A DNA stretch of 63,988 nucleotides, the filler included, from Folioceros fuciformis (Eukaryota): assembly GCA_049999805.1 (NCBI GenBank). It is 9 parts of 9 records of this genome, joined end to end, with 100 filler letters (N's around TTAATTAATTAA, not from the genome) between each part and the next. Parts side by side here need not be neighbours in the genome. Positions count along the whole stretch, not along the records: positions 41,238 to 48,712 come from JBNGIO010001776.1; 8 more parts are not named here. The stretch is one strand, 5' to 3'. Both the position numbers and the translations under genes were made by a program. The notes below the pieces were generated by a model. The model was not told the origin of the DNA, searched no databases, and saw nothing but the letters and a program-made list of their open reading frames with translations. Positions 7,209 to 63,988 of this stretch are shown here, one piece after another (the first letter of the stretch is position 1; every line of letters begins with the position of its first letter).

Positions 7209-7308
7209 NNNNNNNNNNNNNNNNNNNNNNNNNNNNNNNNNNNNNNNNNNNNTTAATTAATTAANNNNNNNNNNNNNNNNNNNNNNNNNNNNNNNNNNNN
7301 NNNNNNNN

Positions 7309-18539: not shown

Positions 18540-19736
18540 TCATTCTCTCCGCATTCATCCCCTTCCATTCTAACTCTTACCTCTAGCAAATGGAAGCAAC
18601 CACTCAGCGAAGCCGCTATGTCACTAGCCAAGTACATAGAGCAGCAGGCATGACCGAGATTTCAGAAACAACGCACTTAACACAGACATGACTATTAAGC
18701 AAAGCTATTGTCGCGTCCATGGGCTCACCGTTCGCTGTGGGCCTCGCTCATGTCCTGCCTTTCTCACATGTGACCGCCGGTGCTGGTGCTAGTGCTGGTG
18801 ATCTCAACATGTAAACACAGGCTGCTCGAGAGACACATCGGGGAGTGATCTTGACGCCTCACAAATCGTGTTTTGGTCGTCATCAACATGCTTTGCAACG
18901 ATTGCAACAACGGCAGGCCGAGGGTGAGGGTCCTTGCTATAATCTGTGGTCTGCAGGTGCGGAAAAGGCTGATGTGTGAGGAGATGGCGCCGGATGTGGG
19001 TGTACGGTGTAGCACATGGTTCCAGATTGCTACCAAGGTGGGCAATCGTGGGAAAAGGAAGGGAGGGCATGGTCGGGATTCGCTTGCTGCTCAGGTCGCT
19101 TTACGTTCCAAATCTTCTTTCTCAACAGACTAAATGGTGTCAAGAAACATGGGAACTTTTTTACCGTCCCGTTGATGTCCAGTCGTGTAGGTAAGCTGCA
19201 CAGCTGTCTCAGCAGAAGGCGGAGCCCACACAGTAGCCGAGGCGCTGTATTGTATTATAATTGGCAGCCGGCTGGCTGCGGTCTCGGTCTGGGCAACAGG
19301 ATGGCCATGTTTTCCCTCCATATGACTTGGTCTGCATCTGGTACTTTCGCCCCCACCTCCCGCAACTTGGGTTTGCATCTCGCCGCCCTGGCAACACCCT
19401 CTATCTCCAGGAGGTTGCCTGGTTCCCGGCCACGGCATCTCAGGCATTGCCTGACGTGTATGTGCTCGGGCAGGATGGCACGTGCTTGTAAATACAGTTC
19501 CCATTACAGTGATCTGAGTTGCACCGGCGCGGGATCGTGGAGAAGCGAGTGAGGCAGGAGAGACAGTGGGTGGGAGTACTAGTCTGCATCCTTATCAACC
19601 ATGTTTCGTGAAAATGGTTTGTTAGCTTTGCTTCTCACGTCCGATGCCGGTGCCGGTGCCTTAGGATCCAGGAACCTGTGTGGGTGGGTGTAGATGGTAG
19701 TTGCGTGGTTGGGGTTGGAACCAGGTATTCAGCAGC

Positions 19737-21004: not shown

Positions 21005-21421
21005 TCACAACCTAGATCGTGCCTGTCTAAGCGAAAATTCTCTCAGCAATCGATCGGCCTCATCACCCCGCTGTTCAGGCCGCACCAAGTGCTTGTTGCT
21101 TGCACACCACGCCCTCCAGTCCGGTAGGACGGAATCCAGAAGGCCCACTAACTGACCTTTAGCCTCCTCCTTGCCCATTCCAGCCAGCGCCTTCCACGCG
21201 GCCTGCTTTCGCCGCAGGCTGGGATCGGAGATGAGAGACACATTTTCCTCCTCATCCCGTGGAAACGGTCCATCCCGCACCTGAGCCTGGTATGCGTACA
21301 GCTGCGCTCGCAGATCGGGAGAGAGGAATTCCAGAGCGGCGGATGGACCCTTGGTGAGAAACACCTGTGAGGCTGTCCAGTCTGCTTCCCGCCTGTCCCG
21401 CGACGCTTCTGACGATTCCAT
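21005..21421 (-). CDS. Small divergent acyl-CoA-binding (ACB) domain protein
   Basis: LYAYQAQVRDGP...RKQAAWKALAGMGKEEAKGQLVGLLDSVLPDW follows the ACB pattern LY.LYKQAT.G...KW.AW..L.GMSKEEA...Y...P.W. Intact 138-aa ORF. Confidence 0.75.
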   Translation of the reverse strand: MESSEASRDRREADWTASQVFLTKGPSAALEFLSPDLRAQLYAYQAQVRDGPFPRDEEENVSLISDPSLRRKQAAWKALAGMGKEEAKGQLVGLLDSVLPDWRAWCASNKHLVRPEQRGDEADRLLREFSLRQARSRL

Positions 21422-21731
21422 GGCAACCCTGCTGATAGTGAAGCCAACCTGACAGATGTTCGCAGTGGCCTGGAATGGAATAGGTCTGCACTACGCTAGC
21501 TCACACACACTTTATTTCTCTTCTTTCTCCTTTCACGGCGCAACGATTTTGGCAGCCTCTTGCTCGCTGCCATGTGTCTATGTTTTTCTGTCGAAGCTTT
21601 CTTGTCTAAAGTGGTGCACCGTGTCTAGGCTCAGGATTCTGGGTCTCCATCCTGTGACCACCCATAAACAGTATGCAGCTTCAATAAGATCGGCTCTGTT
21701 TGCTGCTCTTGCTCCCTGAATTCAGGCTCGG

Positions 21732-24700
21732 ATGCAACGGAATATGGCTGGAATTTTTCCCCAATTTGCTGCAACTGCAGCGACTTTCAGCCGTGCTTCA
21801 GGTCTCATCACCAGGGTGGGAAGCGATGCTCACCTTTATGACAACCCTCTGGATGCCAACATCGCCTCGTTGCTAGGCAGCAAATACGATGCGGAGAAGG
21901 CGCAGGGCATGAAGAGATTGATCGCTCTCATGTCTCAGGGCATAGACGTTGGCAATCACTTCCCGCAGGTAACCCAATGCCCCCTAAGTTCTTCAGTTAT
22001 GATCGTCAATGGTCTGCTGGACAGGGAATGGAAGTTTTCCTTGCCCTCTTGCAGGTAGTCAAGAACATTGTTTCACCGTCTTTGGAGGTTAAGAAGTTGG
22101 TCTACATCTACCTCGTCCATTTCGCTGAAAGGTACGTCCTGAACCTGTTCAGTCTGACAAACCTTTTGTGACGGGGAGGGATGCTCTCCACCTTCTGAAC
22201 CGAATGCCTGCAAAATTTTGAATTGCGTAGGACCTGGATATTTGCCCCTGCTTCTGATTGTCAGATTTGAAAGAGACCTGGTTGGTATTACGGAATGATT
22301 GCTGTCAGCGGACGATAACAGGAAATAGATGCGTAGTCAGGTGGTTCCATGTGAATATCTGGTTATCTGGTGTTTGTTTCTTGTTTCTGAAGGTCGTAAC
22401 GAGATTTGGACATCAGCGTAGAGTGAGTGAATTTGTATCCATTGTACTGATGTTTAAGCATGCCGATAACAGGCGATCCGATGAGGCCCTTCTTTCGATC
22501 AACAGCTTTCAGAAGGACTTGTCTGACATTAATCCGTTGGTACGAGCATGGGCGCTGCGTGCCATGTCAGGCATACGCGTACGGGTTGTTTTACCCTTGG
22601 TTGTCATAGCAGTGAACAAAGCTGCAAAGGATCCCTCACCCTATGTGAGGAGGTGTGCGGCACATGCTATTCCAAAGATCTTTTCCTTGGACCATAAGCA
22701 GCATGCTGAAGTGCTGGAAGAGGTACGGCTGGTCTTGCTTTCCTCCGAGTGGTTCTGATCAGGTGTTGAGTTCTTATGGTCAAAACAATTCTTGTACAGC
22801 TGGTTGGCCTGCTACTAAGTGACAATTCTGAAGGAGTTGTTGGAGCTGCGGCTGCCGCATTCATCGCAGTTTGCCCAGAGAAACTGCACATTGTGGGACC
22901 ACTCTTCAGGAAGCTGTGTGAAATGCTTCCTGATGTTGAAGAATGGGGGCAAGTTGCACTTATGGACATTCTTATGCATTATGCTGTGGGAAGGTATGGT
23001 GCACCAAGAAGCTCAGTAGGGCTGTTGTATCTTACAAGGTTGAAGAATGATCGTCTTTCGGAGCAGAGTGGGGCATCAGCAGTTGAGGAAACCTTGGTAG
23101 GAAGCGGTGACAACACTGATATTGTTGAGCAGCATCTACCTGTTTCACACATATCAGGACTTGTAGTTGAGGATGAAAATGGAGAGTTGCATCCCCAGTT
23201 ACGGATTCTGTTGCAGGGCACAGCTCCCCTCTTATGGAATCAAAACAGTGCTGTTGTAGTGGCAGCTGCAGTCATCCATTGGTTGTTTGCTCCAAAGGAG
23301 TCCCTCATGAAAATTGTCAAGCCTCTGTTGTTTCTTCTGCGTTCTTCCTTTGACTCGCAGTTTGTGGTACGGTTTTCAAAACTTCCAGATGGTCATGATG
23401 GCACAAAATGTTTCTCACAAGTTCTCTTCCAATGGGAAATTGCTCTGTCCGCTGATGAAGACACCTTGCTGCCCCACCAGGTTCTCTCCAACATCGCAAC
23501 AGTCATCAAATTCCAACCCTCTCTCTTTGAGGATTATTATGAGGATTTCTTTGTTCAACCATCTGACAACTTGGCTGTTCGTGCCATGAAGCTTGACATT
23601 TTGGCGCAAATAGCAACAGAGTCAAACATTCACATCATACTTGAAGAGCTGCAGGTTCCATATGGATGGTTTGAGTGGGACTTCACATAAGCTGATCCTG
23701 TTCCTTTCTCCTCACTGGTGAGAAATTGACTTCTTTGGAATGCTGAAGACGTTGACGGGTGAAACATGTGTGATGCAGGCATATATGAGGGATCCTGTTC
23801 GTCAATTTGCTGCGGATACTGTTAGTGCCATAGGGCGTTGTGCAGTACGATTGCCTAGTGTTGCTTCGATTTGTCTGGATGGGATTTTCAGAATTGTCCA
23901 AAACAGTCTAGAATCTTCATATGCACAAGACTTGGACTTGGTGGGAACCAGTGGCCTGAGTGGAGGAGAGGTAGACAGGTCAAATAAAGCTAATAACACA
24001 AAGAGATTCAAACAAGGTGACAGTTCTGTGCACCAACATGTTGCTGAAGCTGCTGTTGTTACACGAGCAGTGGTAGCAATACGGTTGATTGTCCAGCAGC
24101 TACCTTCGGAGCTAGAAACTGTGAGCTATGATGTCCTTTCTCTCAAGTTCTTCCTCGAGGGAACTACCTGGGCTTGCCGTCAATGACAATGGGTTGCTCC
24201 TTGCATGTTTCAGGTCTTCTGCCGCCTCGTCCGCTTCCTGGAACACATCAAGGTTCCTACAGCACGTGCAATAATTGTGTGGATGGTGGGTGAATATAGC
24301 GCAAGCTGTAAAGCAGCCTCACAGATTCTTCCGATAGTTATGTCGTATCTTGGTGGCACGTTCCTGAAGGAATCTGATGAAACGAAACTCCAGATCCTCA
24401 ACACATCTGTTAAGGTACATTGTCTCAAGTATTGTCGAGTGACGCTGTGCTTGACTGTGAGGTTTGAGGGGGTGCATGACCTATTTCGTTTGGCACAAAT
24501 CCCACAAGAGGTTTTGTTTGTGCCAGGTTGTACTGCAATGCAATGACGGACTGGAGGCCTCCTCAAAGCAAGCCAGACTTGTGCTAAAGTATGTATTAAA
24601 CTTGGGGCACTATGATCTGAATTGTGATATCCGTGATAGGGCTCGAATGTTTCAGGTACTGTTGGCATCACAAATAGAACCCCGGCTGGTGGAAACAGGC

Positions 24701-26680
24701 ATAGCTCTGGCTGATGTGACAGGGCGTTCAAGTCAGCCAGTGATGTGCAACGAGGGGCCACTTGGAGGGCAGGAACAAAGTCAACTAAAGGCTACTGACA
24801 ATGCTTGTTCTCTTTCATCAACAAAGGCTGCTGAGTCTCCCTCCACCACTTCTGGAGACATATCAGACATGCTTCTTCTGGCTCCCAGATTAGCACCAGC
24901 ATTTTCGCCGCTCACTCCCGACAGGTCATCCTTTTTACCTGGTTCCATGTCTCACATTGTCCAGCACAAGGCTCCAGGCTATAGGTCGCTACCAGAGCCA
25001 TTTAGCATACAGGATGGTGAGGGATGTGCCACACAAGGACAGAATGACACCCAAAGAGAAAGCGGATCGAGTGGAACAGATAATGCAGATGCTGAGTCAG
25101 GTGATTTCTGCGAGGAGAATGTCAGTATTTCTACTCAAGGATCGACTGAAAGCTACAGTGAGGAGAGTGGTCAAGATTCTGATGACCAGAGGACACAGGG
25201 GAATGGTAAGATTTACACCAGTCCAAGTGAAAGTAACACTAGCGATCACCTGGAGGAAACAAACAGGGGAATCATAAGGCAGACGAAGTCAAGACGCATG
25301 AAGCAAACCAGTCAGGAAGGTAGAAGTCAGCATGTCAATGCTGTCAGAGGGGTCACAAGTAAGGAGAAGGAAGAGCTCGATACCTTTGGGCCTTTGATAT
25401 CACTATCAGATTCTGAAACTGGGAGCAGTTCTGCACAGCATCCACCAAGGCCTCCGCAGTCAGAACTTAATGTAGGTGGTGAAGATCTGTTGTCCTCCCT
25501 TCAATTGGAAGCATGGTTGGGGCCCACGCCAAAAGCTGGAGGATCGAACGTATTTACAGAGCTACCTGAGGCTGGTTTCACTCGTCTCCCACTCGGAACA
25601 GTTACTGTAGAGCCGAAGAAGTATGTCCTTCTTGACTTTACAAATGGAGGAGGACTTGAGATCAAGTATTCTTTCTCCTGGACAACATCACTCTACTCCC
25701 AGAGAATGGCATGCGTCCGGCTCTTCTTGCATAACCGATCTTTGCAGACAAAATCAGGCATTGTTGTGAAGGCTGCAAGCGCTGGCGCTTCATTCGATAG
25801 CAGCTTGTGAGTTCCTTTGGTGGCATAAGCATGTGAGGCGTGCGTGATGACCTTCTAACAGGTCTATGACATGTTGCTTTGCAGGGCAGGACCCGATGCA
25901 GCTGCTGATGATGCCGTCATCATTCCTCTGGAGGAAGTTTCCGAACTAGGTGCCGGACAGAAGACGGAGGGCAATCTTCACGTGGATTTTCGGCACAAAT
26001 TAAGGCCAGCAAAGCTGGTGGTGGCCTGTGACGGGTCACTGTTTCCTGTCAAGCTTAAACCAGAAGTTGGAGCTCTAATAAGGCCAGCATTTATGACCAG
26101 CGAGATGTTTGTCGCAGCTGAGAGCCGACTGTCTGGGATGCTGGAGTCGTCTCGCAGGTATGTTCCGAAGCCTTTTGCAGTTGGTGCTGCGGTAGGAGCT
26201 AAGCACAACCAGCCAATGGTTCGGGTTATTTGCGTTGATCACGATCACGAGCATTCATGCTCTTCAGGTCCCAATAGATGCTGCAATTCTTGTATGTGTA
26301 TGTGCAGGTGCTCTCTGCGGGAACCCTTTCTGGCATCTTTGAGCCTGGAAAGTTTACCCAGCCCAGCAGTGGAAGATCGACCATTGCAAATTTCACACAC
26401 AATCGCTTATCGAGTCTTTGAATCGGCTCATGTATCTCTTGTTTCTGCAACAATGAAGGTCATGAATGGATCGCAAGGCCTGGAGCTCCGCTTCAGTGGA
26501 GAGACCCTCACAGGTTCATTGGTGTGTCTAGTGACAGCCACTTTGCCACTGAATGAGGTGAATCTGCATGAGAACGAGATTGTACCTGTTACAATCAAAG
26601 TGAACTGTGAAGATACTGTGTTTGGTCTGAGCCTACTGAAACAACTAGATAATGCCTTGGGCCTTTCGTATCTTGTTTAG
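21732..26680 (+). CDS. AP3B: AP-3 complex subunit beta (PAT2-like), 10 exons
   Basis: GSDAHLYDNPLDANIASLL, EVKKLVYIYL, ALLSINSFQKDLSDINPLVRAWALRAM, DPSPYVRRCAAHA, YDLNCDIRDRAR and KVNCEDTVFGL motifs. GT-AG exons at about 21732-21968, 22055-22131, 22473-22722, 22800-23366, 23481-23654, 23779-24120, 24214-24414, 24527-25806, 25885-26157, 26308-26680. The start may be ATG 21744. Confidence 0.93.
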
Positions 26681-32180: not shown

Positions 32181-33071
32181 GCAACATTAACGATTCCGGT
32201 AGTAGGTAGACCTTCTCAACTCCCATATCATGATGCATTGAATACCGTTGGTAGCTTTGCATGTATGCCGTAGTGGTCGTGGGTTACTTCTCTTCAACCT
32301 TGTTGGTCTTTTGATTTTGCTTGTTGTCTGAGGTAGATGGGTTTTCAAACTGGTTCTTCCATTAAGTCTTTTCAATTAAGTCTCCACTTTAACATTCTTG
32401 GAGGATACTTTGCTTACCACATGACTTGCACCAATGGGCCAACTCATTAGTACATTGAACCTCAATTATATATTAACTACTCTAAGCAAGCATTGGCTTG
32501 CTGGGAATATGGAATGGATGGAAGGCATGTTAACAAGATAGATGAGTACAAGCATTGGTAACATGTTGTGAACACCAACACCTTAACCAACAACAGTTAT
32601 ACATTAGTAATCAGATTAGAAGTTGATGATTTATTCTATTGTAATTTGAGTAACACTATACAACATTCTCCAAAGTTCTTGCGGTTCAAGTTCTTTATTA
32701 CTGTAATAAGAATAAAAGTTCAATGTTTTGATCTTCTCCACATAAGTATGCATCTCCTTCATATACTTATGTTGTGAAATGGCAAAAACATTGAACTTCA
32801 TTCATCTTACATGCACATGCACAATTCATTAGTAGTAGGACAAGAATGGATCGCTCAAGGAGCTACTTCAAATAAAGCACAAGGATGGTTGGTGAAGTTT
32901 TCTATTTACTGTTACCGTGTGGATTGGTCAGTAGCTCCCTTGAAGTAAACTAGAATAATAGAATATTATCTNNNNNNNNNNNNNNNNNNNNNNNNNNNNN
33001 NNNNNNNNNNNNNNNTTAATTAATTAANNNNNNNNNNNNNNNNNNNNNNNNNNNNNNNNNNNNNNNNNNNN

Positions 33072-34452: not shown

Positions 34453-37273
34453 CTGGCATCTGCAACAAACTTCTGGACGGGGAGGTAAATTACGACGACC
34501 CAAGTGGCTATCACACTTGACTGGAGTATTTGAGGAAAAACTCTTATTGTAGCTACCGTACTCAGCAAGCATGAGGTTTTCAGAGGCCTCTAGCTAATCC
34601 ACCAACGTTCCTGTCTTTGCTCTTCGTTTTCAGATAGGCATACGACTCGCACATCGCATGTGCTTGTCAACGCATCGCAGTTGTGATGTGTTGGTCGGTT
34701 GCCCTATCACATCTCACAGTCAAGGAGTAGTGTATCAAAATTAGTTGAGCGATGAACTCTGAAAAGCCGAATCGGTGGTATCATAAAATATTTAACTTTT
34801 TCTTAACTGATGTAAATGATAGCATGGTGGGGCCAAAGGCCAAGGGTACTTAAACGGATCAAAGTTGTGTGGAGAAGGAGAGACGGTAATGCAAATGAAA
34901 AGGAAGTTAAGTCTATAGGAGAGAAATATCTTATTATATACGATTATCTAGAAAGGAAGTTTATCTTAATTCTATTGAAAAAGAAAGTATCCTTTTGACC
35001 TCATGTTTCCTTGGCATTGTTTCTCCTCATTTAATTTTCAAGTACATATCTTAAAAAAGATATTTTCTATTATTGAAAAAATGATGGAAAGTCCCACCTA
35101 CTTCAAAGATTGGAGGAATTGGAGAACAACCAGGGCCAAAGGTTAAGCGGGTACTAATCGCTTTGAACATCATTCTCAAACACTAAACGGGTACTAATCC
35201 CTTCGAACATCATTCTCAAAGATTACCTACCGCTCCCATATCTAGATGGGATATTGATCTATTGTTCCATGAAATCTATGTCTATCACTTCTAACACCAA
35301 GTGGAAATGGACAAGGCTTATCTATCAAACGAATTTACATACATTTGAGATCTAATCAAGGATTGAGCAAAACGAGATCTAATCAAGGATTGTGAAAAGC
35401 TTTGCTCATGACAATCATAGCAAGCAACAGGTTTCTTCCCCTTTCCTCGACAGTTGTCTTCTTTCCACAACAAAACAAATGATCATGATAAACCTAATCT
35501 TATCATAGCATTATTCCTCTTTGTTTATCACATGTTAAAGCAAGCAAGACTTGATGCTGATATCTGATATCCCACCTAGACGTTATGGTACCTGGAGAGA
35601 ATTGAATGGCAATCGGGTCATACACGTACTTGACAAAATGTTGCCAGTGGGCGGCAGACCCGTGCAACCTACAACAATTGGAAGCAAAGCATAAAGGCAC
35701 ATGCAATGTGGAAGGCACAACATTAACAGCGTATGGTGCGCCTAGCAGAAAGTTCAATTTACGTCTCAACCACTTTCTCTTCTATGTATGTCGACTCTAG
35801 TCTGCCGATTACGTAGTCCAACTATCCTATGATGCTATGACGCTTTGTACATGCACGATGCACGTCAACTGTAGTCTAGTGATCTCACAGCCCAGCTATC
35901 CTATGATACTTTGTACATGCACAGTGCACGAACCTGGGCTGAGCATTTTCTGGCTCCCATAAAGTTTCGATTTGCATCTCAACCACTTCCCTTCCGTATG
36001 CACGATGCTATGTTGTTCAATAGAGCTATCACGTGGTCCAGCTATCACATGGAAGTCTACCCAGTTGAATTCCCAGGACGATGTAGCAATGCCAGTGTCG
36101 TGCTCGGAACATGCCTGTTATTATGACACACTTGCCCTCTGTCTCCCCTCTGTTGTCAGAGTTTGTTGGTGTGTCCTCGTTGTCCCTCCTCTGTGCTAGG
36201 GTGAATCAGGAAAAGGTGATCCCATGAAAGCTCTCTTAACTGTCACACTTACTCTGTGCTGTGATGCGTTGTGTATGTGAGGACTCTGTTTAGGATTGAG
36301 TAAAGGGAGTCCGCACATAGGGCAACCCATGTGTGCGAGAGTGGATAATTTGGAGCGGACTCTGGGAACTGGACATGATCTTGGTCTAGATGATGCTTAG
36401 CAACCCTCCCTGGAAGCGTAAGAGCGTCTTATTGGACTGATCTGTGTACCTGTTCCCCCGTAAAGGCAGAGGGCAGGAGCAACACGGCAAGGAGGAAAAG
36501 GTGAAGAGAAGGTGATGGACGCATGCACCCTTAAGAGCAAGGGCGAGGACAGGGGAGTCCACTCTTGGGCGCGCCCACATGCCTCCACCTTCCTGCAGCC
36601 TTCCAGTTGGCCTGTGTCTTCTGCTTCCCGTTCCCCTCTGCCGTTCCCCGTCCCATGACACGGACGCGATGTCGACCGGGTGTCGTGTCGGGCCCGGCCC
36701 GGCCCGGTTATGATTATTTAAATGAGAAAATGGGATTTAAGGCGGCCGACACAGCGCTCGCCACCTATATGTACCACCGACCAGTCCGGTGCTGCGACAT
36801 TTTTCGAGAAAGCTTAGGAGGGACTGCGATTTCGCGGGATGCGGGGCTCCTAAAATAACTTGGGATAATGCGGCGAAAAAGCGGGCGGGCGCCGGCCAGC
36901 TTTGGGCTCCCCTTTACCTATTAATCCCGCTGATGGGGACGGCGCCGGAGAAGGGGGCCCGGAGCAGTGTCGCGTCAATAATAATGCTCCGCCGCCTGGT
37001 CCCATTGGCACCCGGTTCCGGGGGGTCCTTGCCTGCCCTCCATCCGACAACCCACGCAGTCCTGTCGTCTCCTTCTCCGCTTATTACCCCGCCTATCCGT
37101 CCATGCTCTCCCTACAGCCTCCCTCCCTCACTCCCTTCCTCTTCCTCTTCCTCCCTCCCTCACTCACTCACTCNNNNNNNNNNNNNNNNNNNNNNNNNNN
37201 NNNNNNNNNNNNNNNNNTTAATTAATTAANNNNNNNNNNNNNNNNNNNNNNNNNNNNNNNNNNNNNNNNNNNN

Positions 37274-37546
37274 TATATCTTTAATTAATATTAAACTAAT
37301 CACCCAACCCTATGGCCTGGTACCGAACCTAAACCTTCCTAGGTCTGGGACCAAACCTATACCCACTCTTATAACCAAACCAACTATTTCCTGGTCAATT
37401 AACCTAATTAGCACAAAAAATAGGAAAAATGACCAGAAAATAAAGGAAAATTAGGGAAAATAAGTTGAAAAAGAAAACCAAACCATACCACTATTAACCC
37501 TTTTTCAACCAAAACAAACTACTACCCCAAACTTTGGAGGTTCACA
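37274..37546. mobile_element. Family B LTR-like terminus inserted in Copia RT
   Basis: Matches 1-113 and ends GGAGGTTCACA. The Copia RT codons WYKRIMKYL follow immediately. Confidence 0.8.
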
Positions 37547-39965
37547 ATGGTATAAGCGGATAATGAAGTATTTGCGCCAACTTGGCTTCCTGCAGGCTCC
37601 AATAGACACCAATGTCTTTTACTTTGCTATTGATTCGCTGTTTGTCATCCTTGCCCTGTATGTCGATGACTGTGTGCTTCTAAGCAATAGCCCTGATCAA
37701 CTTCAGAAGGTGAAGGCTATGCTTCGTCAGGAGTTTGAGATGACTGACCAGGGTGATTTACAGTTTTGCTTGGGTATCCAGATCTTGCGCAATCGCTCCC
37801 ATGGTCAAATCATTTTGCATCAAACAAAGTATATTAAGGAGATTCCGAAATAGTTTCATTTGGATGAGGCCCGACCAGTTGCCACTCCCTCTACAGTGGG
37901 GGAGAAACTTAACTCTTCTATGTCTCCTCAGAGTGATCGTGAACTTGAGGACATGCAACTTGTTCCCTATGCAGAGGCAGTTGGCTACATGATCTTTTTG
38001 GCAAACTGGACATGACCTGATATTAGTTACTCTGTCTCGATTGTCTCTCAGTTTTTGAAGTCTCATGGATGACAGCACTGGGCAGCAGTTAAGAGGATTT
38101 ACCGATATCTTAAAGGCACCATTTCTTATGGTTTGCAATATACCAGCAGTGGGAGTAATAGGTGTGAACTTACCTCCTTCGCTAATGTTGACTAGGCCTC
38201 TGATGCGAACACCTGGAAGAGTTTGTCTACATATTGTTTTCTCTTGGCTTCTGGTACTGTCAGTTGGAGCTACAAGAAGCAGACTTCCTTGGCACTTTTG
38301 TCCACTGAAGCTGAATATAAAGCTCTCACTGATGCTTGTAAAGAAGCTAAGTGGGGAAGACAGTTTCTAGAGTCAATGAATCAAGCTCAGACAAGTCCAA
38401 CACTGCTACTATGTGACAATATGAGCGCAATTGCCCTTGTCTCCAACCCTAGGTTTCATGCCAGAACCAAGCATATAGAACTCTATCATCACTATGTAAG
38501 GGATGCAGCTGAACGAGGCATAGTCAAGGTTGAGTATATTAGCACATATTTAAATATTGCAGACATATTTACTAAAGGGCTCTCCAAAGCCAAACACTTT
38601 CAGCAAATGGCTACTTTAGGTCGCAGGGAGTTCAGCCATCCCTAGCCTGGCACACTGTCTATCTATTGTGCAGGATTGGTATTGGCGTTTTCTAGGGTTC
38701 TGTGCACACCACACAAGGAGGTCAGCACCTTGGTGGCTCATGCCACAACTTCTGTCAGGCCTTAGAGTTCATGTGATGTAGCCCTAGGCACAGGACCACC
38801 GTGCACAGGTTACAGCCAGTTGTCAGTGACATGCCTGTTTAGAGGATGAAGCTCAACAGAAGTTCTAGACGTATGCATTGCATTGCTAGGTAGTTGTTTA
38901 CTTATAGGGCGGAGCTTCTTGCCACACAAGGAGCACAACTTGCTCCTGTGAGCACAGACACCATAGTCTTTTAGTAGCATCACGTTTTGCCTTGTTTACC
39001 TCGATGTCGTCAAGAACGTTGTCAACAGTTGTAGTAGCTCTTCTCAGAGACTCCTCCACTAGCTCTGCCTGCTGCCTGGCCACCTCGGCCCTTTGGTGTC
39101 TAGTAGTTTCTCCATCTCTGCAAGCGTCCCGAATACTGTCTTCACTTGATCAGCTAGCAAGGGAGTGGTGGGAGGTCCTCCAGGAGCACAGGCTCTGCGA
39201 CGAGGGATACTCGCCACCTCGTCCTCCTCATCAGCTGAGTTGGGCATAGGAGACAAGTTTGTGATGCTTGGCTTAGAAGCTCTAAAGGATTCTTCCAAAT
39301 CCAGCTCTATCATTGGAAAACTGGCAGGGTAGCGAGGCAGGTCGACAGGCGCTGAGACGTTGGTCATAGGCCTGCGCAGGCGCCACAGCTGGAGTCACTC
39401 CTCTGGCTGTTGAGCGCCTATGCTTCTGTCCATCTTCAGAGATGGAGCCGCTCGCTCTCTTCTTGCTTGTGCGCTTGGGAGCCATGGTTGCTGAGGTGCT
39501 GTGTGTCGAGCTTGAGCGAGTTCTTATCTGTCATCTTGCTGTTGTAGCTCGCGAATAAGAAGAGGACGCCGTTTTTAAGAATGCTGTAAACGAGGACTTG
39601 ATGGCTGCACGTGGCTTAGTGGTGGGCTGTTAGAAGTATCGTTGGATAATGATATCCCTTTTAAACCTATGGTCGTATAAGCTATTTAGGTTTAGTGGGA
39701 GTGTTAGGGATGGAAACCCTAACATGACTTACTCTACAGTTAAGACTTGGGCTTGGGCTATTCTAAGACTTGGGCAAGCTAATTGTGCCAGACGACAACT
39801 AGCTCATTATCACATAAACCTTAATGATCCAACGGTGGGGTAGGCGGGGTGAGTCCACGGGAGGAATTCGCAGGAGATACCTGCATCTGTGAGGTGAGGC
39901 CCGGTGAGGATTATGCTCCTCCATGTTAGGGATGGAAACCCTAACATGACTTATACTACAGTTAA
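37547..39965 (+). mobile_element. Ty1/Copia 3' half: RT, RNase H (to 38645), antisense ORF, PPT and 3' LTR start
   Basis: LALYVDDCVLL, FEMTDQGDLQFCLGIQI, PYAEAVG, SWSYKKQ...STEAEY, CDNMSAI, HARTKHIE and NIADIFTKGL motifs. PPT AGTGGGAG then TG at 39702. Several stops. Confidence 0.93.
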
Positions 39966-41137: not shown

Positions 41138-41237
41138 NNNNNNNNNNNNNNNNNNNNNNNNNNNNNNNNNNNNNNNNNNNNTTAATTAATTAANNNNNNN
41201 NNNNNNNNNNNNNNNNNNNNNNNNNNNNNNNNNNNNN

Positions 41238-41960
41238 GACTCGTGGTGAACATTTCGTATTATTGATGGAGAGACTAAACTTGTGCTACGAAGATGATGC
41301 GATCCCTAGCCCTGGATTCTTCGTTCCCTTCACCTTGGATGACACAGAAGGTAAAGATCTTCAAGGGAATGACAGTTGGTCTGGAAGGGTGGTACAGCGC
41401 TCAGGTAAGTACAAGTACTTAGGGAGGCGGCTACAATGCCGAGAGACTGGAAGGGTGGTACAGTGCAAGAGTACAACTACTTAGAGAGGTGCCTACAATG
41501 CCGAGATAAACGAACACGTTTGTCGTCCAGGCTTCCTTCCAAGATTCCAGGTACGTTACCTTGTGAGGTTTGTGAAACGTCGTTAGTGATATCTGCTCTC
41601 TTTGGCTTTCATGGCATGGTCAATGGTTGTGCGTTGCAGGTCAAGTTACGACAGATCTTGTTTAGGGTATGTAGTGTCATCAGTATAGCATTGCGCGCAA
41701 CTTGATCAAATTTAACTAGTATGTTATGGACGTATTTTTGGAGAGCAGTGGGATATTGGGGAGGAGACCGGGGACATTGGGGATCGTGTTGACATTTTGA
41801 TGAGGTCACTCAAGAACAAAGACAAAGCGATCGAATTTCTCCAGCAGAGTTTGGTCGCGGAACTGAGAGCATTTGGTGCTTCTCTTGATGGTAGTCCTGG
41901 AGTTGAACTAGTAGCAGGGATCATCAGGATTGAGTGTGTGGAGAACCTCAGGGAAGGAAC
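41238..41960 (+). pseudogene. TORNADO1-like (Roco family, COR region) gene remnant
   Basis: LLMERLNLCYEDD...FFVPFTLDD...YLGRRLQCRD...PGFLPRFQ, then GT-AG intron 41551-41639, then VKLRQ...DRVDILMRS...PGVELVAGIIRIECVENL. This is colinear with my recollection of TRN1 (LELCYE...LLVPSIL...YSGRHLQCDD...GFFPRLQVHL...YIDVLAC...GVILLEHIIRPQCVQDL). Frameshifts and an internal duplication are present. Confidence 0.7.
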
Positions 41961-42786
41961 CATCGTATCCAAAGTCAGTCACAGGGACCGCCTCTACTGA
42001 AGTCAGGGAAGAAACCGTCATATCCAAACGAAAGGTTAAAAGCAGGTCACAGGCGAGGTCTAGCAACGATAGTTAGTATAGAAAAAGGCGGAGATGGAGG
42101 ACAGCTAGACAGAGGGCGACTCGACGTTCTTCTCCGTGGTCTGCCCTTGAAGTTTGAGATGGTCTTTGTGGTGGACGATCTTATGGAAGCGAAATCAACG
42201 TTGGAGCACGTTGTCAGGCATCCTGACTTCGATGAGGACGATAGCTTTCTGCTTTACTTAAATGCCCATGATGAGACCGAAGAAGATGGTAGAAAGTATG
42301 TTTGCTTAGGTTTTGTCTGCGGAGAAGCTTTATGTTGAAGAAGTTATTTTGAAGCCCATTGCTGAATCCGGGAATTTGGCAAACAAGCCTAAGGTGGTTG
42401 TCATAAATATTTGTCGAGGTGCTGGCAGTCTTGCCAAAAGTGTGAAAGCACAACGTTTAGGCACCACCACCACTAGCGGCAAAGCCATGGGCTCATACAT
42501 TGAGGTGCTGGCAGTCTTGCCAAAAGTGTGAAAGCACAACGTTTAGGCACCACCACCCTTGCCACTAGCGGCAAAGCCATGGGCTCATACATTGAGGAAA
42601 GCTAGGGTCCCAGCAAGAGAATTCGACCCTGTATTATGCGAGCAACTTTCTCACCGTGTACTCTACTAGTCATGGAGCAACTTTCTCACCGTGTACTCTA
42701 CTAGTCCTGGAGACGGATCTTTAAGAGATGTTAAGAAAGGCCCAAACTTCATCATAGCTTTTGTTTTTGTATGTTTGCTTAGGTGA
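41961..42786 (+). pseudogene. Caspase-like (peptidase C14, p20+p10-type) domain remnant
   Basis: Motifs in caspase order: RRGLATIVS, DSFLLYLNAH (His codon 42267), LANKPKVVVINICRG (Cys codon 42412), NFLTVYSTSPGDGSLRDVKKGPNFIIAF. Frameshift near 42320 and two tandem duplications. Confidence 0.72.
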
Positions 42787-43631
42787 AGCAGACAACGCCG
42801 AGAAGCTACGGCAGGGTGTGGGAAGCCGCTACGGGTGGGGCTGTGGCTGAGGCCACCACGTGATATCATTGTCACTTAGTTAACAAAAAGAGATATGAGT
42901 GATGGTCATGAAGATCACCCCTCATGAATTTTCGGGTTTAGGGTTCAATAAAATGAACTCCTATAGACATATTGTAAAGTGGATTATTCTATTACATGAG
43001 TTTATCTTGGAACTACTAATAAAGCAAGCAAGCAACTTGAGAAGGTGCTCTGCTAATTATTAATGGACAATAGGTGGCTTAGAGTCTAGCATTATGTCAA
43101 GAGAATTAATTCAAAGTATGCGAGTTATATGCATATAACTTGAGATTGGCAAGGTCTTCAAAGTATGCGAGTTATATGCATATAACTTATGAATTGGCAA
43201 GGTCTGAGGCTGTTGGGAAGCCAACATTTATTTCTTGACTCCTTGTTAGCTTTGTGAAATGGATGTGTTACTACATACATATTCTTAAATTTACAAATCG
43301 AGACTTATTATGTTTTAGAAGGCTATAAATGTATGCTTAGACCATTAGTTTTAATGTATTGAGTGCAAGACTTCCTTATTCTTTAACATATGCAAGCATT
43401 CATTGAGACTATATACATTGTCCATGGATCATAGCTAATGTGATTTCTGTGCCTTAAGCTTGCCATCTCCTTTCGTCATAGGCTTTCCCAAGCCCTTAGC
43501 TCCAATTGAATTTGGTGTGCCTTGCAAAACTTAGACTTGTATGCCTATTGTCAAGTTTAATATTTAGTTGTGGCAAGAAAATTTTATTATTTAGCTATCA
43601 CAACCAAGTCAAGTATCTAGGTCTCATAGTC

Positions 43632-44340
43632 ATGGCTTTGGATAGGAAGGTGAAGTTGAGGGTTGGCGATGATCATATTTTTGAGATTAATGAAGCTGTG
43701 GCACAAGAGAGTGAGATTTTGAAGAATCTAATCCAAGATGTGGGCCTAGAAAGCATTGTTCCACTTCCTAACATCCGCAAGAAAATGTTGGAGAAGGTGC
43801 TCGATTGTTGCAAGTTTCATGCAGAGGTAGTGTAAAAGTCTGAGGACAATTTGATGATTGTCCAACATGATATCAAACGATGGGATCAGGAATTCGTGAG
43901 GGTTGATTGTGCTACGTTGTTTTAGCTCATTTATGTGAGTGACCATCTAGCCTTTCTGCTTCATGAAAGCTTACGCAAAATAGTTGTCATGAAGCCATCG
44001 TGAACAATAGCAATTAGTGCTTTCGCCTTGTTAGATTTGTCATTTTGATGGTTGTGTACTATGTGGTGCAATTGATTGTTGCTCACATATTTTGGTTGGA
44101 TTGTTTTGTTGCAACATTTAGTTGATTTGTTTTGCTTCATAAAGTTTAAGGGCTTACCATGGCCTCCTTGTTTTAAGAAAACCAACAAAAGCATAAATTT
44201 GTTTAGCATAAATAACCTATGTTTGCGTTGTGGAGGAGGTGGCTGATTATATCAACATCAGCAAGCTATTCGACTTAATTTGTTACTCTATTGCAGATAT
44301 GATAGAACATATGAGTCGTCAGCAAATAAGAGAGAGTCAA
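43632..44340 (+). pseudogene. SKP1: SKP1/ASK-like pseudogene
   Basis: KVKLRVGDDHIFEINEAVAQES...VPLPNI...LEKVLDCCKFH...IKRWDQEFVRVD, an intron at about 43935-44238, then ADYINISKLFDLIC..IADMIE. In-frame TAA at 43833 and TAG at about 43923; the C-terminus is truncated. Confidence 0.85.
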
Positions 44341-45754
44341 TCAGTGGTTTGTAACACTTTTTGTCTCCATGTTACAGTATTCTGAGCTACCATTAAGTTT
44401 AAGTATTACATAACCAGTACATGAAGCTCATAACCAAAGAGTTTGTTATGGGCCTACCCTTTGAGATGAGGTTCAACCTTCAGTTTAGCCAAGCATGCCA
44501 CCAACTAATCACAATCGCATGCTTGCACTAACGTCAATTACAAAGAAAAATGTGGGCTTAACCCAAAGTTTACATCTAGCATGGGCAACATACACTGGCA
44601 TTGACATGGGTGAAGCCTGTATAGGCAACCTTGTTCTATACATGCAACTTGTAGTGTGCCCACAACCCAACACACCTAGGTATAGTATGCCAGTAGACTA
44701 AAAGAAATAGAAGTTCTATTTCTTTCAATCTACTTACTACTGTAACTCTAAAGTCGAGTTCCTCTCGTAACTCAAGTGTACACTACCCCAACCATCTTGC
44801 TACCACCAATTGTGCATGTGGCTTCCACTATTTGGGCCATACATGGAATGTTGATGGTCCCACACTCACCTTCAGCTTGCAACGATGGCCGTAATTGGCT
44901 TCGAGGCATAGGGGGGCTCCCTACCTCCTACTCCATTTCCTCATCCCCTCCACCCATCTCCTTGGCATACCCCCTTCTACCCATCTCCTTGGCATACCCC
45001 CTTCTATTCATGGGCATAATAGGAGGAAGTGGGGATTTTCATTGTTCTCGAAAACTTTATGACTCGTTGCCGGCCTTGCAAACATTATGCCCTCATGCCT
45101 CTCATTAGGCATTGGGCCTTTGTCTCCTATGTTCTGCTCAATGTCCTCCTCCCTATCAAACTCTTTAGCAGAGCAATCGGTTACTTAGCGGGATTGAAAG
45201 GCCAACTAGTACTCCTCATCTTTGTTTTCGTTGGTCGCCTTCATGACGTCAAGTGAAAAAGGTAGAAACAAAGTCCCCTCGTCTCTTTATGCCCCAATAC
45301 TCCTACATTTCGGAGAGGGGTCTCAGACACCCAAACTCACACTCTTCATCTATAGGTTCAAGTCCATTTTTCTTCGAACTTTGTGACCCATCCTGCGCTA
45401 GCATATTGGCCCCCTGTGTTGGGCCCTTCTCATATAGTTTTAAGAAATTGCACTTGCATTGTAAATTGGGCTTTTGATGGCAAAACATTTCCATGTTGGC
45501 ATAGATCCACTCGCAACCACCTAACCAACTCGTTGCAAACTTTGTCGTTTGCCAACATTGGCTTGTACAAGACTGCTATGTCCTTTTGTTGCATTCTCTA
45601 TTCTCATGCACAAGCCTTAGCTACATCAATGTAGCGGTTATTTCACAACCTTGCAGACTAGTTGAATTTGCTGCTAATGAAAGCTTTTACAGTAAAATAT
45701 GAGAACTACATTGGCACATCGGTGCAAATTTGTTTCCTTCATTCTAGATGGAAA

Positions 45755-46150
45755 TTCGCTCAAGCTCACAAGCAGGCTCACTCACTTACATGTTCACTTG
45801 CACTTGCATAGGCCCAAAGGTAAGCTCACTCACTCATAGGCTTGCTCACTCACTCATAGGGCCACTCACTCACATGCTCACAAGCAGGATTACTCCATAA
45901 CTAGCTCACTCGCTCATAGGCTCACAAAAAGGCTCATTCACTCATAGGCTCAAAGCCAAGCTCACTCACTCACAAGCTCATAGACTGGCTCACTTGCTCA
46001 CAAGCCCAATCCCTTACAAGGTCACAACCAAGCTCACTTGCTCACAAACAAGCTCACAAACTCATTCGCTCATAGGTGGGTCACTCGCTCATAATCTTGT
46101 AGATAGGTGGGTCACTCGCTCATAATCTTGTAGATAGGTTGAGTCACTTG
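45755..46150. repeat. Array of degenerate GCTCACTCACTCATAGG-like motifs
   Basis: Many GCTCAC/GCTCAT cores, ending in an exact tandem duplication of ATAGGTGGGTCACTCGCTCATAATCTTGTAG. Confidence 0.75.
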
Positions 46151-47625
46151 GATGCCTAAAGAGTGTTTGACACACTTGGACAGTATGATCTAGTTTGTTG
46201 AACAACTCTCACAGTATGGTTTTCCCAAGATGGATAAAAATTCCGTTCGTTTAGATCCCTACATTATTGTTCAAGTAAATGACATGGCGGTTTTTGATTT
46301 TATGGCATTTGTCTACATCCTACAAGTGTGTGCAAGTGTGGGCTAAGTGTTGGAGAAGGGGAAGCAATATTAAACCACATGGATATAATACATGAAGAAG
46401 GGGAAGCAATGGTGGTCTTTTGCATGTAATATACCTTTCAATGAGTAAGAAAATTGTACATGAATTATAGGAAATGGACATTCATGAAATTGAGTCAAAA
46501 GTTAGTTTGCACAATCAATAACAAAGACATAGTGAGTGGAAAACTGTAGGGATAGGGACGGCAAGTTAGTAAGGGTTGATACGTGTTATAAGTAGAAGTA
46601 GAGGGAACGAAGTCAGTTCTTTCCATGTTTCTCCATTGTGAAGAAGATGCAGTGAGCTGTCCTTGAGCGCCTTTACAACAACTTTCATATGCTAGATGTC
46701 ATAATTTGACTTCTTTTTTAATTTTTTCTCTCTAAAATCACTTTTAGAAACAGGGTCTATAATTTGAGTGTTCCAGAAAATAGAAGTATGCATCATTTGC
46801 AACTCTATTGGCAAAAACAAGTAAGGGCGGCCCATACCCAGAGCGAGCGCTTTGGGAACACCTTCATGCTCTTGTTTTCATTTCCATGAATGTTGAGAAT
46901 TTGAATACTATTCTAGTAGATATCACTTTGTGAAAAAAAATGTTTACTCTCACACTTACCTTTCTGCAATACAATGCTCCGCTCAAGCTTTCTTCCTTGT
47001 CTCATGATAGCCTACTTGCTTACAATCTCGTTGAATAAATTTAAGCTTTTATTTGTCTTCGTTTGGAGCAAGGAGGGCCTAATGACTCCTTCATTATGTG
47101 GAGCACGCCAAAACCACTTACCCTGTGGCAAGGCTAGGGACACCACACTGGTCTTGTGTTGTGATCATCAAAATCCCATCTAATCCAACTTGCTTTCAAG
47201 ACCGGGACGCGATGACGAAAGATGGAGAGCGCTCCATATGACGACAAAAGTAGCACAGGGGCCGAGAGAACGGTGTGCTTGTAGGCGACGCCGGCGACGG
47301 CGTCGCTTCTCGGTATCCTCTCGATGTCCACCCTTGCCCGATGTTTCGACACGCGATGCGCCATCGGGTCGTCCCACCCACGCACATCTATAAAATATAT
47401 GTATAAGGGAATACCTTCTCCAGCCCAGCAGTTCTCTGAACTATCCCGTCTGGGCACCATATAGATCACGCACTCGAACCTCACATGCTTACCTCGTCCC
47501 TCGAAGGCATGTCTGACAAAAACCTCAGCATACAGTGTCCGTGAAGGTTGCACTGGAGCTCGTGCTGAAAGTGTACAGAAGCTGCTAACGTGAAAGATGA
47601 GGACGCGTGCTCTTGGGAGGGAGCC

Positions 47626-48712
47626 ATGGCCGTCCTTAGGTTAATTGGAACGGGAGGGAGATCTCCTGCTGGTCTCATTCCTCGGCGTGCCTGTAAGTCG
47701 TATTGGAATTTGTCGGACGATCGTGGACCTAGCAGGCTTGCAGGATGCGAGAGGGCCGCTGCCACGCCGGAAACGGTCAGGAAGCTATGTCATCAGGGCC
47801 GTCTTAGCGAGGCTGTCGAGGAGCTGGAAGCCCTGGTGCACACGGACTGTTGCGTTTCCAAGTCTGTTTTTTACACTGTGCTGAGGAAATGTGTATTGAA
47901 GGGGGATCTTGCTCTGGGTCGTCGGGTTCATGCTTCCACGGTGAAAAAGGGGTACCAGTCGGACACCTTCCTGTGCAACCATATCCTGCGGATGTACGCT
48001 TCTCATGGCATGTTGCAGGATGCGATGGATGTGTTCTCCATGGCTGCCAAGCCAGATGCCTTCCTGTGGTCCTCCATCATTTCTGCTTATTCTAAACATG
48101 GGCAAAATAAGCAGGCCATTGAGCTGTATCGTCAGATGCGAAGGTCAAGGGCGAAGCCGGATGGTCATGTGTTCGTGGCAGCCCTGCAGGCTTGTGCAAG
48201 AGGATCAGACTTGAAATCTGGGCAGCTGGTGCATGCTGATGTGCTGGCCAGTGGACTTAAGCCGAATTTGGTGCTTTCTAGCTGCTTGGTGGACATGTAT
48301 GCCAAGTGTGGAAGCCTGGAGGATGCTCAGCATGTCTTTGATGGGCTTGTTCAGAAGAATGTGGTGACTTGGAATGCTATAATATCAGGGTATTCTCAGA
48401 AAGGTCGAGGGCAGGATGCTCTCCGTCTCTATAGTGCCATGCAAGAAGATGGTGTGGCTGTACCCGATTCAGTGACATTTCTGTGCCTCCTGCAGGCATG
48501 TGCAAGTGTAGGGACCTCTGCATTGGAGATGGGGAGGCATTTTCACGTGCAAACGACAGAACGAGGATATCATGCTGATACGTCCGTGGCCAACAGTTTG
48601 GTGAGCATGTATGCAAAATGTGGTAGCCTAGAGGGTGCTCAGAGAGTGTTTGATGGACTTCGTCGGAAAGATGTGGTTACCTGGACAGCTCTGATTGCAG
48701 GATATGCCCAGC
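47626..48712 (+). CDS. PLS-class pentatricopeptide repeat protein, 5' part (runs into gap)
   Basis: Repeated LVDMYAKCGSLEDAQHVFD..KNVVTWNAIISGYSQ and PDSVTFLCLLQAC motifs, with a transit-peptide-like N-terminus. Intronless. Confidence 0.95.
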
Positions 48713-49749
48713 NNNNNNNNNNNNNNNNNNNNNNNNNNNNNNNNNNNNNNNNNNNNTTAATTAATTAANNNNNNNNNNNNNNNNNNNNNNNNNNNNNNNN
48801 NNNNNNNNNNNNCTACTATGCTATCTCATCTACTATTGTATCATACAACACTACCTACCCTTTGTGCGGTGGTGATTCTTGCTACTCTATCATTAGGACT
48901 ATGATGTTGTCTCTCATATCTTTGTGGCTTGGTAACATACTGCAGACATTGGTGAAGGGTTGCCAAAGAAGGTTTCAAGTTACTCCTCATTCCATGTGTC
49001 ATCGTATGAGTGCCGCGACACTACTTTTGTCAAATTTTCTAGGGGTGCATGATCAGCTTTCTTTCCCCTTCCCTTCGTCCTTGCATTTGACTGAGTTCTT
49101 GGAGGTCCATCGGTGCACTCTTTCCTTCCACCATTTGCATTACGTGCACTCTCTGTTTCACTAACGTTCCACGGGAAAGTTGTCGTCAACTTCATGGCCC
49201 GTCATGGCCCGTTATTCTCTGCTCGATGAAGATGGTATGCCTCTTGTCCCAATCAATCGCAATACAATTTCGACCCTCCATTATTGCCGAAAGAACACCA
49301 AGAACCACCCTAAACCCTAAACCATCAACCCTAGCGGCTTTTGGTACGGATTTACAACTCTGCCCTTATTCGACACGTTCAGCACTTTTTTTTATGATAG
49401 TACTATGCTTAATGATCCAATGCATTTCTCCAATCTCCTTTGCTGCACTATTGCTTAGTGCATTGCTCTTCCGAATATTTTATTTCAATGGATGAACCCC
49501 AAATTCAACTATAACATAACGTACTTGCAATTTTCGTATAGCCCCACATCCGGGACAACGTTGTCTTTTTCCCAAACCATAGGTTGTACGCCTGCCTTTG
49601 CACACTACTTCCACAACCTGTCTCTAATATCCTGCATCTGATCTAGACTGTGCCTGCACACGACCCTCAAATTTTGACACGCGGTGACTTTGAAAAACCC
49701 CTCCATTACCTTCTCTAGGTCACCTAATGTAAACTACTACCTAGGGTTG

Positions 49750-58480: not shown

Positions 58481-58679
58481 AGAAAGTTCCTTTGACCAGA
58501 CATGCTGGACTTAGTCCTGTTACTTAAAATGGAATTTTATGTCTTCAATGATATATATAGCCCCTCACACACAATACAGTTGGATGCCCCTCAAATTCAA
58601 GGGTGAACTTCAAGCGAACTCACATCTCTTGTAAGCTAAGACTCGCCGCTGGCTGTGGGCTAGCGTGCACCCTGTGACC

Positions 58680-59340
58680 ATGGGGTATATCGCGGGACTC
58701 CTTACATAAGAGGCGTGCTACAGGAGGGAAGAAAAAGTCATGGCACAAGAAGAGAAAATATGAGTTGGGCAGACAACCGGCAAACACGAAGCTGTCGAGC
58801 AACAAGACAGTTCGCAGAATCCGTGTCAGGGGAGGGAACTTCAAGTTCAGGGCTCTAAGGTTGGACACAGGCAACTTCAGCTGGGGCACGGAGGCAGCGA
58901 CCCGGAAGACTCGGATTCTGAACGTGGTGTACAACGCGTCCAACAATGAGCTCGTCCGGACGCAGACTCTGGTGAAGAGCGCCATCGTCCAGGTTGATGC
59001 TGCACCCTTCAAGCAGTGGTACAGCCAGCACTACGGCTTGGAGATTGGAACGAAGAAGAAAGCTCCCACCAAGAAGGAAAGCGAGGAGCCAGCAGAGACT
59101 ATCGAGGAGAAAACGAAGAGCGCACACGTTTTACGGAAGTTGAATAAGCGGGTTAAGGGCCACACGCTTGACTCTCACTTGGAGGATCAATTCAAGGGTG
59201 GGCGTCTACTTGCGTCCATCTCCTCCAGGCCTGGACAATGTGGCCGTGCAGATGGCTACATCCTGGAAGGCAGGGAGTTGGAGTTCTACTTGAAGAAGAT
59301 TCAGAAGAAGAAGGGCAAGGGTGGTGCCGCTGGGGCATGA
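58680..59340 (+). CDS. RPS8: 40S ribosomal protein S8 (eS8), intronless, with an apparent +1 frameshift after the ATG
   Basis: [16 protein letters not shown]...[12 protein letters not shown]...[19 protein letters not shown]...[17 protein letters not shown]. The sequence reads ATG G GGT ATA, one G too many. Confidence 0.9.
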
Positions 59341-62440: not shown

Positions 62441-63988
62441 TGTGAACGAAAAAAACTTTCGGAACCCCCATTTTGAGCGACGGAATGAGCAGGTTGTGAT
62501 TTTTTTTGTGAAGGGACAGGCGAATCGGCTTAGTAGGTAAATAAGACCAGGGTGTTTATGCCCAAAGTCCCTCTTGGGCTTTGGGGGTTGGGGTGTACTG
62601 AAGACCAGGACAAGGAGAAGGAATGAGCGAGTGCCTCCTTGCCTCTCGGGTCATTGAGAACATTAAGGACCAGGTCTGTAGGTAGGTGAGTGGGGTATGA
62701 CCGTGGCCTTTGGTGNNNNNNNNNNNNNNNNNNNNNNNNNNNNNNNNNNNNNNNNNNNNTTAATTAATTAANNNNNNNNNNNNNNNNNNNNNNNNNNNNN
62801 NNNNNNNNNNNNNNNCCTAAAGAGGCGTGGCGGAACGGGAGCGGCGGAAGCACTGCTCAAGGTAGGCACGAGAAAGGAAGCGAACGGGTGGCTGGTGCGC
62901 GACATGGCAAGTTCCCAGCTGTTGGGATTGGCCAGGTGGGTCCTGAGCTTCTTCCGGGTACGCAAACAGGATTATCTGTCCGATCAGATGCTCCTGTTTG
63001 TGCATGAAGTAGTGAAGGGCACCAAGATCGACTGGGGAAGGATTTTATACACCCGGATGGATGAAGAGAGGCAGAACCTGATCCGACCCACCCCTGAACC
63101 TTCTATGATTTCCCCATTTCTAATCCACGTGTACAGTTACGCTAACGTGGTCACTGAGCTAGAAAGGCTGGCCTCGCTGCACCTGTGGAAGCCAGTTCGG
63201 GATGTGAAGTGGAAGCCCGCTGAGCCAGTAAGGGCTGCCTCTAGCAGTTGGGAAGCTGACAGTGGGGATAGCTCGCAGGAGGAAACCCCAGCCAAGCCCA
63301 GGAAGAGGATGGTCCCACAGAAGAAGGCTCCCACTAGGAGGAAAAGGATCAGAGGACCAGGAGTGAGCATGGGGGCTGATCAGGAGGAAGGGGGGACGGC
63401 CCTGGAGCAGACAGGCCAGCAGGAGGAAGAACAAGAACCAGCTGTCCAGGGAATCGAGGACCGAAGGTTGGAGGAACAAGGTCAGGGTGAGACAAGACCC
63501 GAGGAGCCACGGGATCAGGTGATGACAGCCGACACAGTTTCCTCCAGACAGGAGGATAAGTTAGGGCGCGTTACAGCATAGGAGGGTTTTTCAGGGTGGG
63601 AGGACATTTTCAGGTGCAGGCCTCAGAGAGACAGGTTGCAGGTGGGGGACCTGGACAAGTTGCGAGAACTCCTGGGCAGACAAATCACGGCGAGAGGAAT
63701 GGGCACTGGAGGGGTGCAGGAGGTGGACTTACCCGGATTGACTGCTGCAATGGTACAAGCCCAAGCAGACCTCCTGGATCAGGCCGCTAGGGCCCTGACC
63801 TGGTTAAGTGTACAAGCCAAGCGAGAAACCAAGGCTCAGGTGAAGGAAGAGGAGGCTCATGAGCGAGAGGTTGAAGTAAGAAGGCATCTGGCGGAGTCAG
63901 AGACAGCGCGGCAACTGCTGGAGGGGAAGTAGCGGGTTTTGGACAGGGAGAAGGCTCAAGCCAAGGAAGAGGCGCGCGAGGCGAGGGC
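62441..63988. mobile_element. Retroelement family A copy 4 (spans gap; closest to copy 1)
   Basis: TGTGAACGAAAAAAACTTTCGGAACCCCCATTTTGAG terminus. 62816-63800 is highly similar to about 2850-3833. Confidence 0.85.

Follow-up and report, generated by a model that had tools for sequence, protein, structure and literature searches.

A dead copy of a repeated family with caspase-like blocks, of likely Peptidase C14 ancestry, beside land-plant genes in Folioceros fuciformis

Results

The window, that is, the whole stretch of DNA analyzed here, comprises 63,988 nucleotides from Folioceros fuciformis (assembly GCA_049999805.1), filler included. It is composed of nine short contigs chained through eight joins (3834-3933, 7209-7308, 16596-16695, 32972-33071, 37174-37273, 41138-41237, 48713-48812, and 62716-62815), each consisting of 44 N, TTAATTAATTAA, and 44 N. 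These joins are six-frame stop linkers. Because the window is a chain of contigs, features that lie across a join are not shown to be adjacent. The caspase-like copy that concerns us is located on a continuous 7.5-kb contig (41238-48712; JBNGIO010001776.1) with linkers on both sides, which it shares with a SKP1-like gene and a PPR gene.

The SKP1-like gene (43632-44385, plus strand, Met codon at 43632) lies 0.9 kb downstream of the caspase-like copy. Pfam identifies Skp1_POZ in the ORF 43500-43835 (E 1.4e-16) and Skp1 in 44212-44385 (E 1.7e-5), the latter over only 24 residues of the dimerisation domain; the gene may itself be degenerate or may have further exons. The PPR gene starts at 47569 on the plus strand (PPR_2, E 6.7e-40) and is cut by the contig end at 48712. 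Apparently intact genes are found on other contigs: F-box/kelch (17400-18539), RING-H2 (19701-20834), ACBP (21005-21490, minus strand), exons of AP-3 beta adaptin (22258-26680), and ribosomal protein S8e (58678-59340). Remains of copia-type retrotransposons are present at 37464-38645 (plus strand) and 5668-6525 (minus strand), with RVT_2 at 37464-37853 (E 1.4e-15); their RNase H-like ORFs, 38196-38645 and 5668-6006, are alike by eye and have no Pfam match. Three contigs also carry plus-strand ORFs with long, closely similar peptides (2626-3400, 9012-9443, and 62816-63581), which are one repeated element, and a Pfam scan of the translations of 2792-3400, 9012-9443, and 62817-63581 returned zero matches. 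The gene content of the window is that of a land plant.

Four peptide strings with a caspase-like appearance had been reported from this contig in an earlier, sequence-only reading. All four were found, on the plus strand between 42051 and 42762; that reading had missed that they occupy two frames and are interrupted by duplications and stops. The N-terminal half of the p20-like part (42051-42272) runs from RRGLATIVS (42051-42077) to DSFLLYLNAHD (42240-42272), both in the frame whose start position modulo 3 is 0. By motif reading, the candidate catalytic His codon is the CAT at 42267-42269, and the codon behind it, completing the stretch 42267-42272, is GAT (Asp). GAT is one step away from GGT, in agreement with the proposal that HG became HD through a single G-to-A change. 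The Cys block, LANKPKVVVINICRG, is located at 42376-42420 with its Cys codon at 42412-42414, and the start of the p10-like part, NFLTVYSTSPGDGSLRDVKKGPNFIIAF, at 42679-42762; both are in the frame whose start position modulo 3 is 1.

The first frameshift lies at 42312-42321, where this copy has 10 nt and the family has 15 nt. A second copy of the surrounding segment exists within the window at 42769-42808 and is 5 nt longer than 42296-42330. In addition, 19 loose letters ahead of 42321 in a contig of a further sequencing run (X4) are similar to this second segment copy and, read by eye, keep one frame. Through the loss of 5 nt at 42312-42321, the His and Cys blocks end up in different frames. 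Behind the Cys block, the segment 42416-42501 is duplicated in tandem, and the duplicate (42502-42593, 92 nt) carries 6 extra bases and shifts the frame again; the two units (families D1 and D2) are 100% identical, or 93.75% identical over 96 columns when the 6-nt gap is counted. Continuing in the frame of the Cys block and ignoring one duplicate, we read by eye an in-frame TAG stop at 42603-42605. A one-base deletion follows at 42626-42627, since an additional C follows 42626 in other copies (one contig of run X1 and two contigs of run X2). By reading, this C joins the frame of the Cys block to that of the first p10 copy. A 35-nt tandem duplicate of 42640-42674 (42675-42709; D4, 97%) shifts the frame once more and doubles the string NFLTVYSTS. 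Finally, the sequence is rearranged at 42769-42808 (D9), where it jumps back to the duplicate of 42296-42330 and reads YVCLGEADNAEKL; beyond 42769 the three downstream frames contain no C14 similarity, and most of p10 is therefore missing.

The variants of the other copies restore one frame at two of the breaks, as a former ORF predicts. In the copy itself, no continuous frame passes through p20 and p10: two frames, four read-through stops, two tandem duplications, and the missing end of p10 stand in the way. The locus cannot encode a protease, and the copy is dead. The sequence-only reading had emphasized that the catalytic codons survive. The His and Cys codons are indeed present, but the description is misleading because the reading frame around them is destroyed. 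Five small tandem duplications, with periods of about 62, 55, 92, 35, and 47 nt, are crowded into 1.8 kb (41381-43205), some lying within the caspase-like copy and others a short way beyond it.

The caspase-like stretch is part of a copy of a repeated family (41238-42808, plus strand), which starts at or before the first base of the contig and ends at about 42780-42810. The evidence for the family consists of counts of distinct variant contigs, obtained by comparing sequencing runs with the contig 41238-48712. Over 41700-43100, runs X1 and X2 are DNA from one sample, and X3 (2017) comes from another study and contributes a small part. The three runs share one species label; X1 and X2 may come from the assembly's own sample and are thus not independent of it. 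A letter unlike that of the window was found at 42012 in seven contigs of X1 and five of X3, at 41536 in five of X1 and six of X2, and at 42368 in four of X1 and two of X2. Between 42778 and 47340, each listed piece is one contig with 0-1 differences; this part is treated as unique flank, and X1 record 1 (42778-43139, 0 differences) bridges the last segment of the family and this flank. The summed contig depth of X1 is 55-283 over the repeat and about 5-12 over the flank, a ratio that is not a copy number. The window itself holds no second copy of the family. The caspase-like stretch is one of several diverged copies in one organism. Five variant letters shown in the coding blocks were read by codon; one is synonymous and four are not, and by this reading they give no sign of purifying selection.

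A possible 72-nt intron (41568-41639, plus strand) lies upstream of the domain and is missing from one X3 contig. This contig, record 19, covers 41430-41565 and 41638-41766, and the ends become GT..AG once the joint is moved by 2 bases. The skip is a hint of a spliced transcript of a relative, the RNA nature of X3 being a guess. X3 leaves 16 of 17 bins from 42988 to 47237 without cover and matches the PPR gene with 0 differences; this pattern looks RNA-like, though the uncovered parts are no evidence. The PPR repeats draw most of the roughly 1000-1500 aligned contigs from each of the runs X1-X3, and the contigs on the PPR gene show many internal skips of about 75-380 nt, which are due to the very large PPR family rather than to splicing. 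In the X4 contigs on 41238-48712, every difference is C>T (14) or G>A (13). The X4 library appears to have been damaged or chemically converted, so its letters at T and A may be non-genomic.

The relationship to Peptidase C14 was examined with Pfam PF00656, whose curated gathering cut-off is 21.4 bits. As separate pieces, the Cys block (profile positions 114-139) reaches E 0.17 and 11.9 bits, and the p10 block (159-188) reaches E 0.25 and 11.4 bits. When 42310-42786 is translated as a single-frame read-through with X at the four stops (P0001), the two become one colinear PF00656 match over profile positions 114-188 (E 8.2e-5, 22.8 bits), which is 1.4 bits over the cut-off and hinges on the read-through of the four stops. 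PF00656 was found in none of 11 control translations: the five other frames of 42310-42786, three upstream frames (41238-42340), and three downstream frames (42787-43403). The upstream frames contain no prodomain, death-fold, transposase, or other domain recognisable by Pfam.

The His-block piece alone gave zero C14 matches in Pfam or PDB. However, in the ESM Atlas feature search, a protein-language-model method whose result we rate as a lead, 27 of the 30 named hits of 42036-42311 belong to the PF00656 set (score 0.93, 160 shared features). These hits are mostly from Ascomycota, so that the lead points to fungal C14 clusters and not to animal caspases. An AlphaFold2 model of the His block, made without an alignment, has a mean pLDDT of 48.4 and a pTM of 0.28 and is unusable for a fold search. 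The presence of a C14-like domain, as the sequence-only reading had it, is thus borne out by the P0001 match over the cut-off, by the empty controls, and by the ESM Atlas lead. Judged from the sequence, C14 ancestry is likely, and we hold this view with considerable confidence.

The PF00656 match cannot separate the caspase and metacaspase subfamilies, because PF00656 covers both. P0001 was compared with the PDB by phmmer, with rows taken at E<=10. Forty-seven of the 51 rows are caspases (46 caspase-3 variants and one insect caspase), all of them weak (E 0.6-1.3), and the four unrelated rows include the two that rank at the top. No metacaspase or paracaspase occurs among the 51 rows. The PDB row 'MC7' (9e2g_4H) aligns solely with filler read out of frame (query residues 68-92) and was not counted as C14. 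The p10 piece searched by itself gave 37 rows, 35 of them caspases. In the printed alignments of P0001, both blocks are colinear on caspase-3. The Cys block shares 8 of 17 residues with the caspase-3 active-site block, including K-P-K and C-R-G, and its Cys falls on the catalytic Cys block of caspase-3, whereas the His position comes from motif reading and is followed by Asp, not Gly. For the p10 block, identity to caspase-3 extends to 13 of 28 residues, including the Arg in S-x-R, where Arg lies on Arg.

At the S1 positions, the copy has an Arg after the putative catalytic Cys and an Arg at L5, and Asn takes the place of the caspase Gln. For the L1 Arg no alignment was obtained, and DRGRLD (42108-42125) is only a candidate. 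Excerpts of PMC4357240 describe the basic S1 pocket of caspase-7 as Arg87, Gln184, and Arg233, with Asp365, Asp462, and Glu500 as the MALT1 counterparts. For caspase-3, passages from PMC5756287 name Gln161 and Arg164 and attribute an acidic pocket to all other C14 members. According to these parts of the two papers, the positions of the Arg after the Cys and of the p10 Arg are those of the basic caspase S1 pocket.

The claim of the sequence-only reading that the domain is caspase-like and not of the metacaspase type holds in part. It stands for the Cys and p10 blocks, through the caspase rows and the two S1 Arg residues, but the matches are weak and the pocket Gln is an Asn. The evidence amounts to about 45 well-matching residues within a broken copy. 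By sequence, the resemblance of these two blocks to caspases, above other solved C14 members, is supported; that they lean to the caspase/paracaspase pattern is a reasoned lean rather than a result.

When P0001 was searched exhaustively with HMMER in a set of 1.84 billion representative proteins, zero matches reached E<=1e-3. The word-based homologue search at 'longer' lengths was empty for the His-block ORF, P0001, and the upstream ORF, and scans of viral, metagenome, and prokaryote genome contigs revealed zero relatives. NCBIfam and PADLOC reported 0 families, and Rfam over the contig gave 0. Had the sequence been transferred recently from a well-sampled animal, fungus, bacterium, or virus, or come from such a contaminant, matches would be expected. 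The empty protein and contig searches suggest that the family is old or fast-evolving. Open-access literature text yielded no report of such a plant caspase-type family.

Discussion

We propose that the locus is a dead copy of a C14 (caspase/haemoglobinase fold) coding sequence that belongs to a multi-copy family, in an organism with land-plant genes in the flanks. We regard this explanation as probable, by a modest measure. The ancestral gene would have encoded a His-Cys protease whose Cys and p10 blocks followed the caspase/paracaspase rather than the metacaspase pattern. In an intact member, the Arg after the Cys together with the L5 Arg would make an acidic P1 residue likelier than a basic one. 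The family may have gained its copy number by amplification, through a mobile element or segmental duplication, and some of its members are perhaps still transcribed. The present copy would then have decayed through the 5-nt loss, the 92-nt and 35-nt duplications, the TAG stop, the 1-nt deletion, the change to HD, and the 3' rearrangement.

Among the known systems, the animal effector caspases (C14A; caspase-3 and -7) are the best C14 matches in the solved structures and have the same block order. The copy differs from them by the Asn in place of the pocket Gln, by HD in place of HG, by its truncated p10 and broken frame, and by having no recognisable prodomain. Moreover, the overall similarity to them is insignificant by the E-values given above, and the copy sits on a plant contig as a member of a repeated family.

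Like the copy, the paracaspases (MALT1 type, C14B) have Arg behind the Cys, and their p10 presumably starts in a similar way. The L5 Arg of caspases overlies Glu500 of MALT1; the copy has Arg on that Arg where MALT1 has Glu, the other two pocket positions being unaligned, and no MALT1 row occurs among the 51 PDB rows. Passages of PMC4357240 describe a caspase-like topology for paracaspases, and parts of PMC5756287 place them outside animals in a slime mould.

The plant and fungal metacaspases (C14B) belong to the same Pfam family as the copy and are the C14 members expected in plants. In one alternative, the copy descends from the plant's own metacaspases as a decayed paralogue, and the caspase look of about 45 residues arose through drift or convergence. 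We consider this unlikely. It is consistent with the breadth of PF00656, with the fungal C14 clusters of the ESM Atlas lead, and with the His block and the acidic residues that follow it, which we take to fit metacaspases as well as caspases. The pocket argues otherwise: a metacaspase should have an acidic one, yet the copy carries Arg both behind the Cys and at L5. The PDB comparison points the same way, although the absence of a weak match is no proof. The relevant passages of PMC5756287 report solved metacaspase structures and an acidic metacaspase pocket, and metacaspases are nevertheless absent from the rows. In favor of the alternative, the portions of PMC10896300 and PMC13272413 that address the question report plants with metacaspases only. 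A metacaspase-derived sequence should, however, match some plant metacaspases, and in the large protein searches none reached E 1e-3.

The caspase-like DNA could also stem from a different organism in the sample (an animal, a fungus, or a protist) and be joined to the plant genes through an assembly error. Caspase-type motifs are what the excerpted text of PMC5756287 leads one to expect in animals, the assembly is fragmented (eight linker joins in 64 kb), and the contig that bridges family and flank begins only at 42778, so that the join is thinly supported. The possible origin of X1 and X2 from the assembly's own sample adds to this concern. On the other hand, the contig is unbroken from 41238 to 48712, the flank side of X1 record 1 shows no differences, and the family recurs in X3, which represents a second study and sample under the same species label. 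No near protein from animals, fungi, or others was found, whereas recent contamination by a sampled group should have yielded one. Contamination is unlikely, and we allow it very little weight.

An equally slim prospect is that the sequence has no C14 ancestry and that the motifs resemble it by chance in repeat-rich, non-coding DNA. Each block alone is insignificant in Pfam and in the PDB, the protein searches found zero relatives, and with roughly 800 such tiles in six frames the window-wide Pfam E comes, by our own arithmetic, near 0.07. Chance does not readily account for three blocks on one strand in the correct order and spacing, for a gathering threshold reached only in the predicted frame, or for the placement of the first block in the same family by an independent method (ESM Atlas). 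The indels of other copies that restore a single frame across two breaks likewise fit a former ORF.

A broader proposal, which we regard as doubtful at present, is that a land plant possesses a multi-copy, possibly transcribed C14 family of the caspase type. Its members would have a basic S1 pocket, would not be related to the metacaspases of the plant, and would lack any detectable relative among the protein collections available today. Such a family might be a relic of the caspase/paracaspase branch from before animals, or it might have been acquired horizontally long ago and amplified since, perhaps by a mobile element.

Conclusions

The enzymes behind the 'caspase-like' activities of plant cell death have long been debated. 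Plants lack caspases according to reviews (PMC5756287, PMC10896300, and PMC13272413, in the passages that bear on this point). The value of the dead locus is that of a pointer to a family, whose full recovery is worthwhile. If the proposal is true, the question of 'caspase-like' activity could be tested in one organism through a plant family whose active-site and S1 residues are of the caspase type, and such a family would also inform where the caspase/paracaspase branch of C14 arose.
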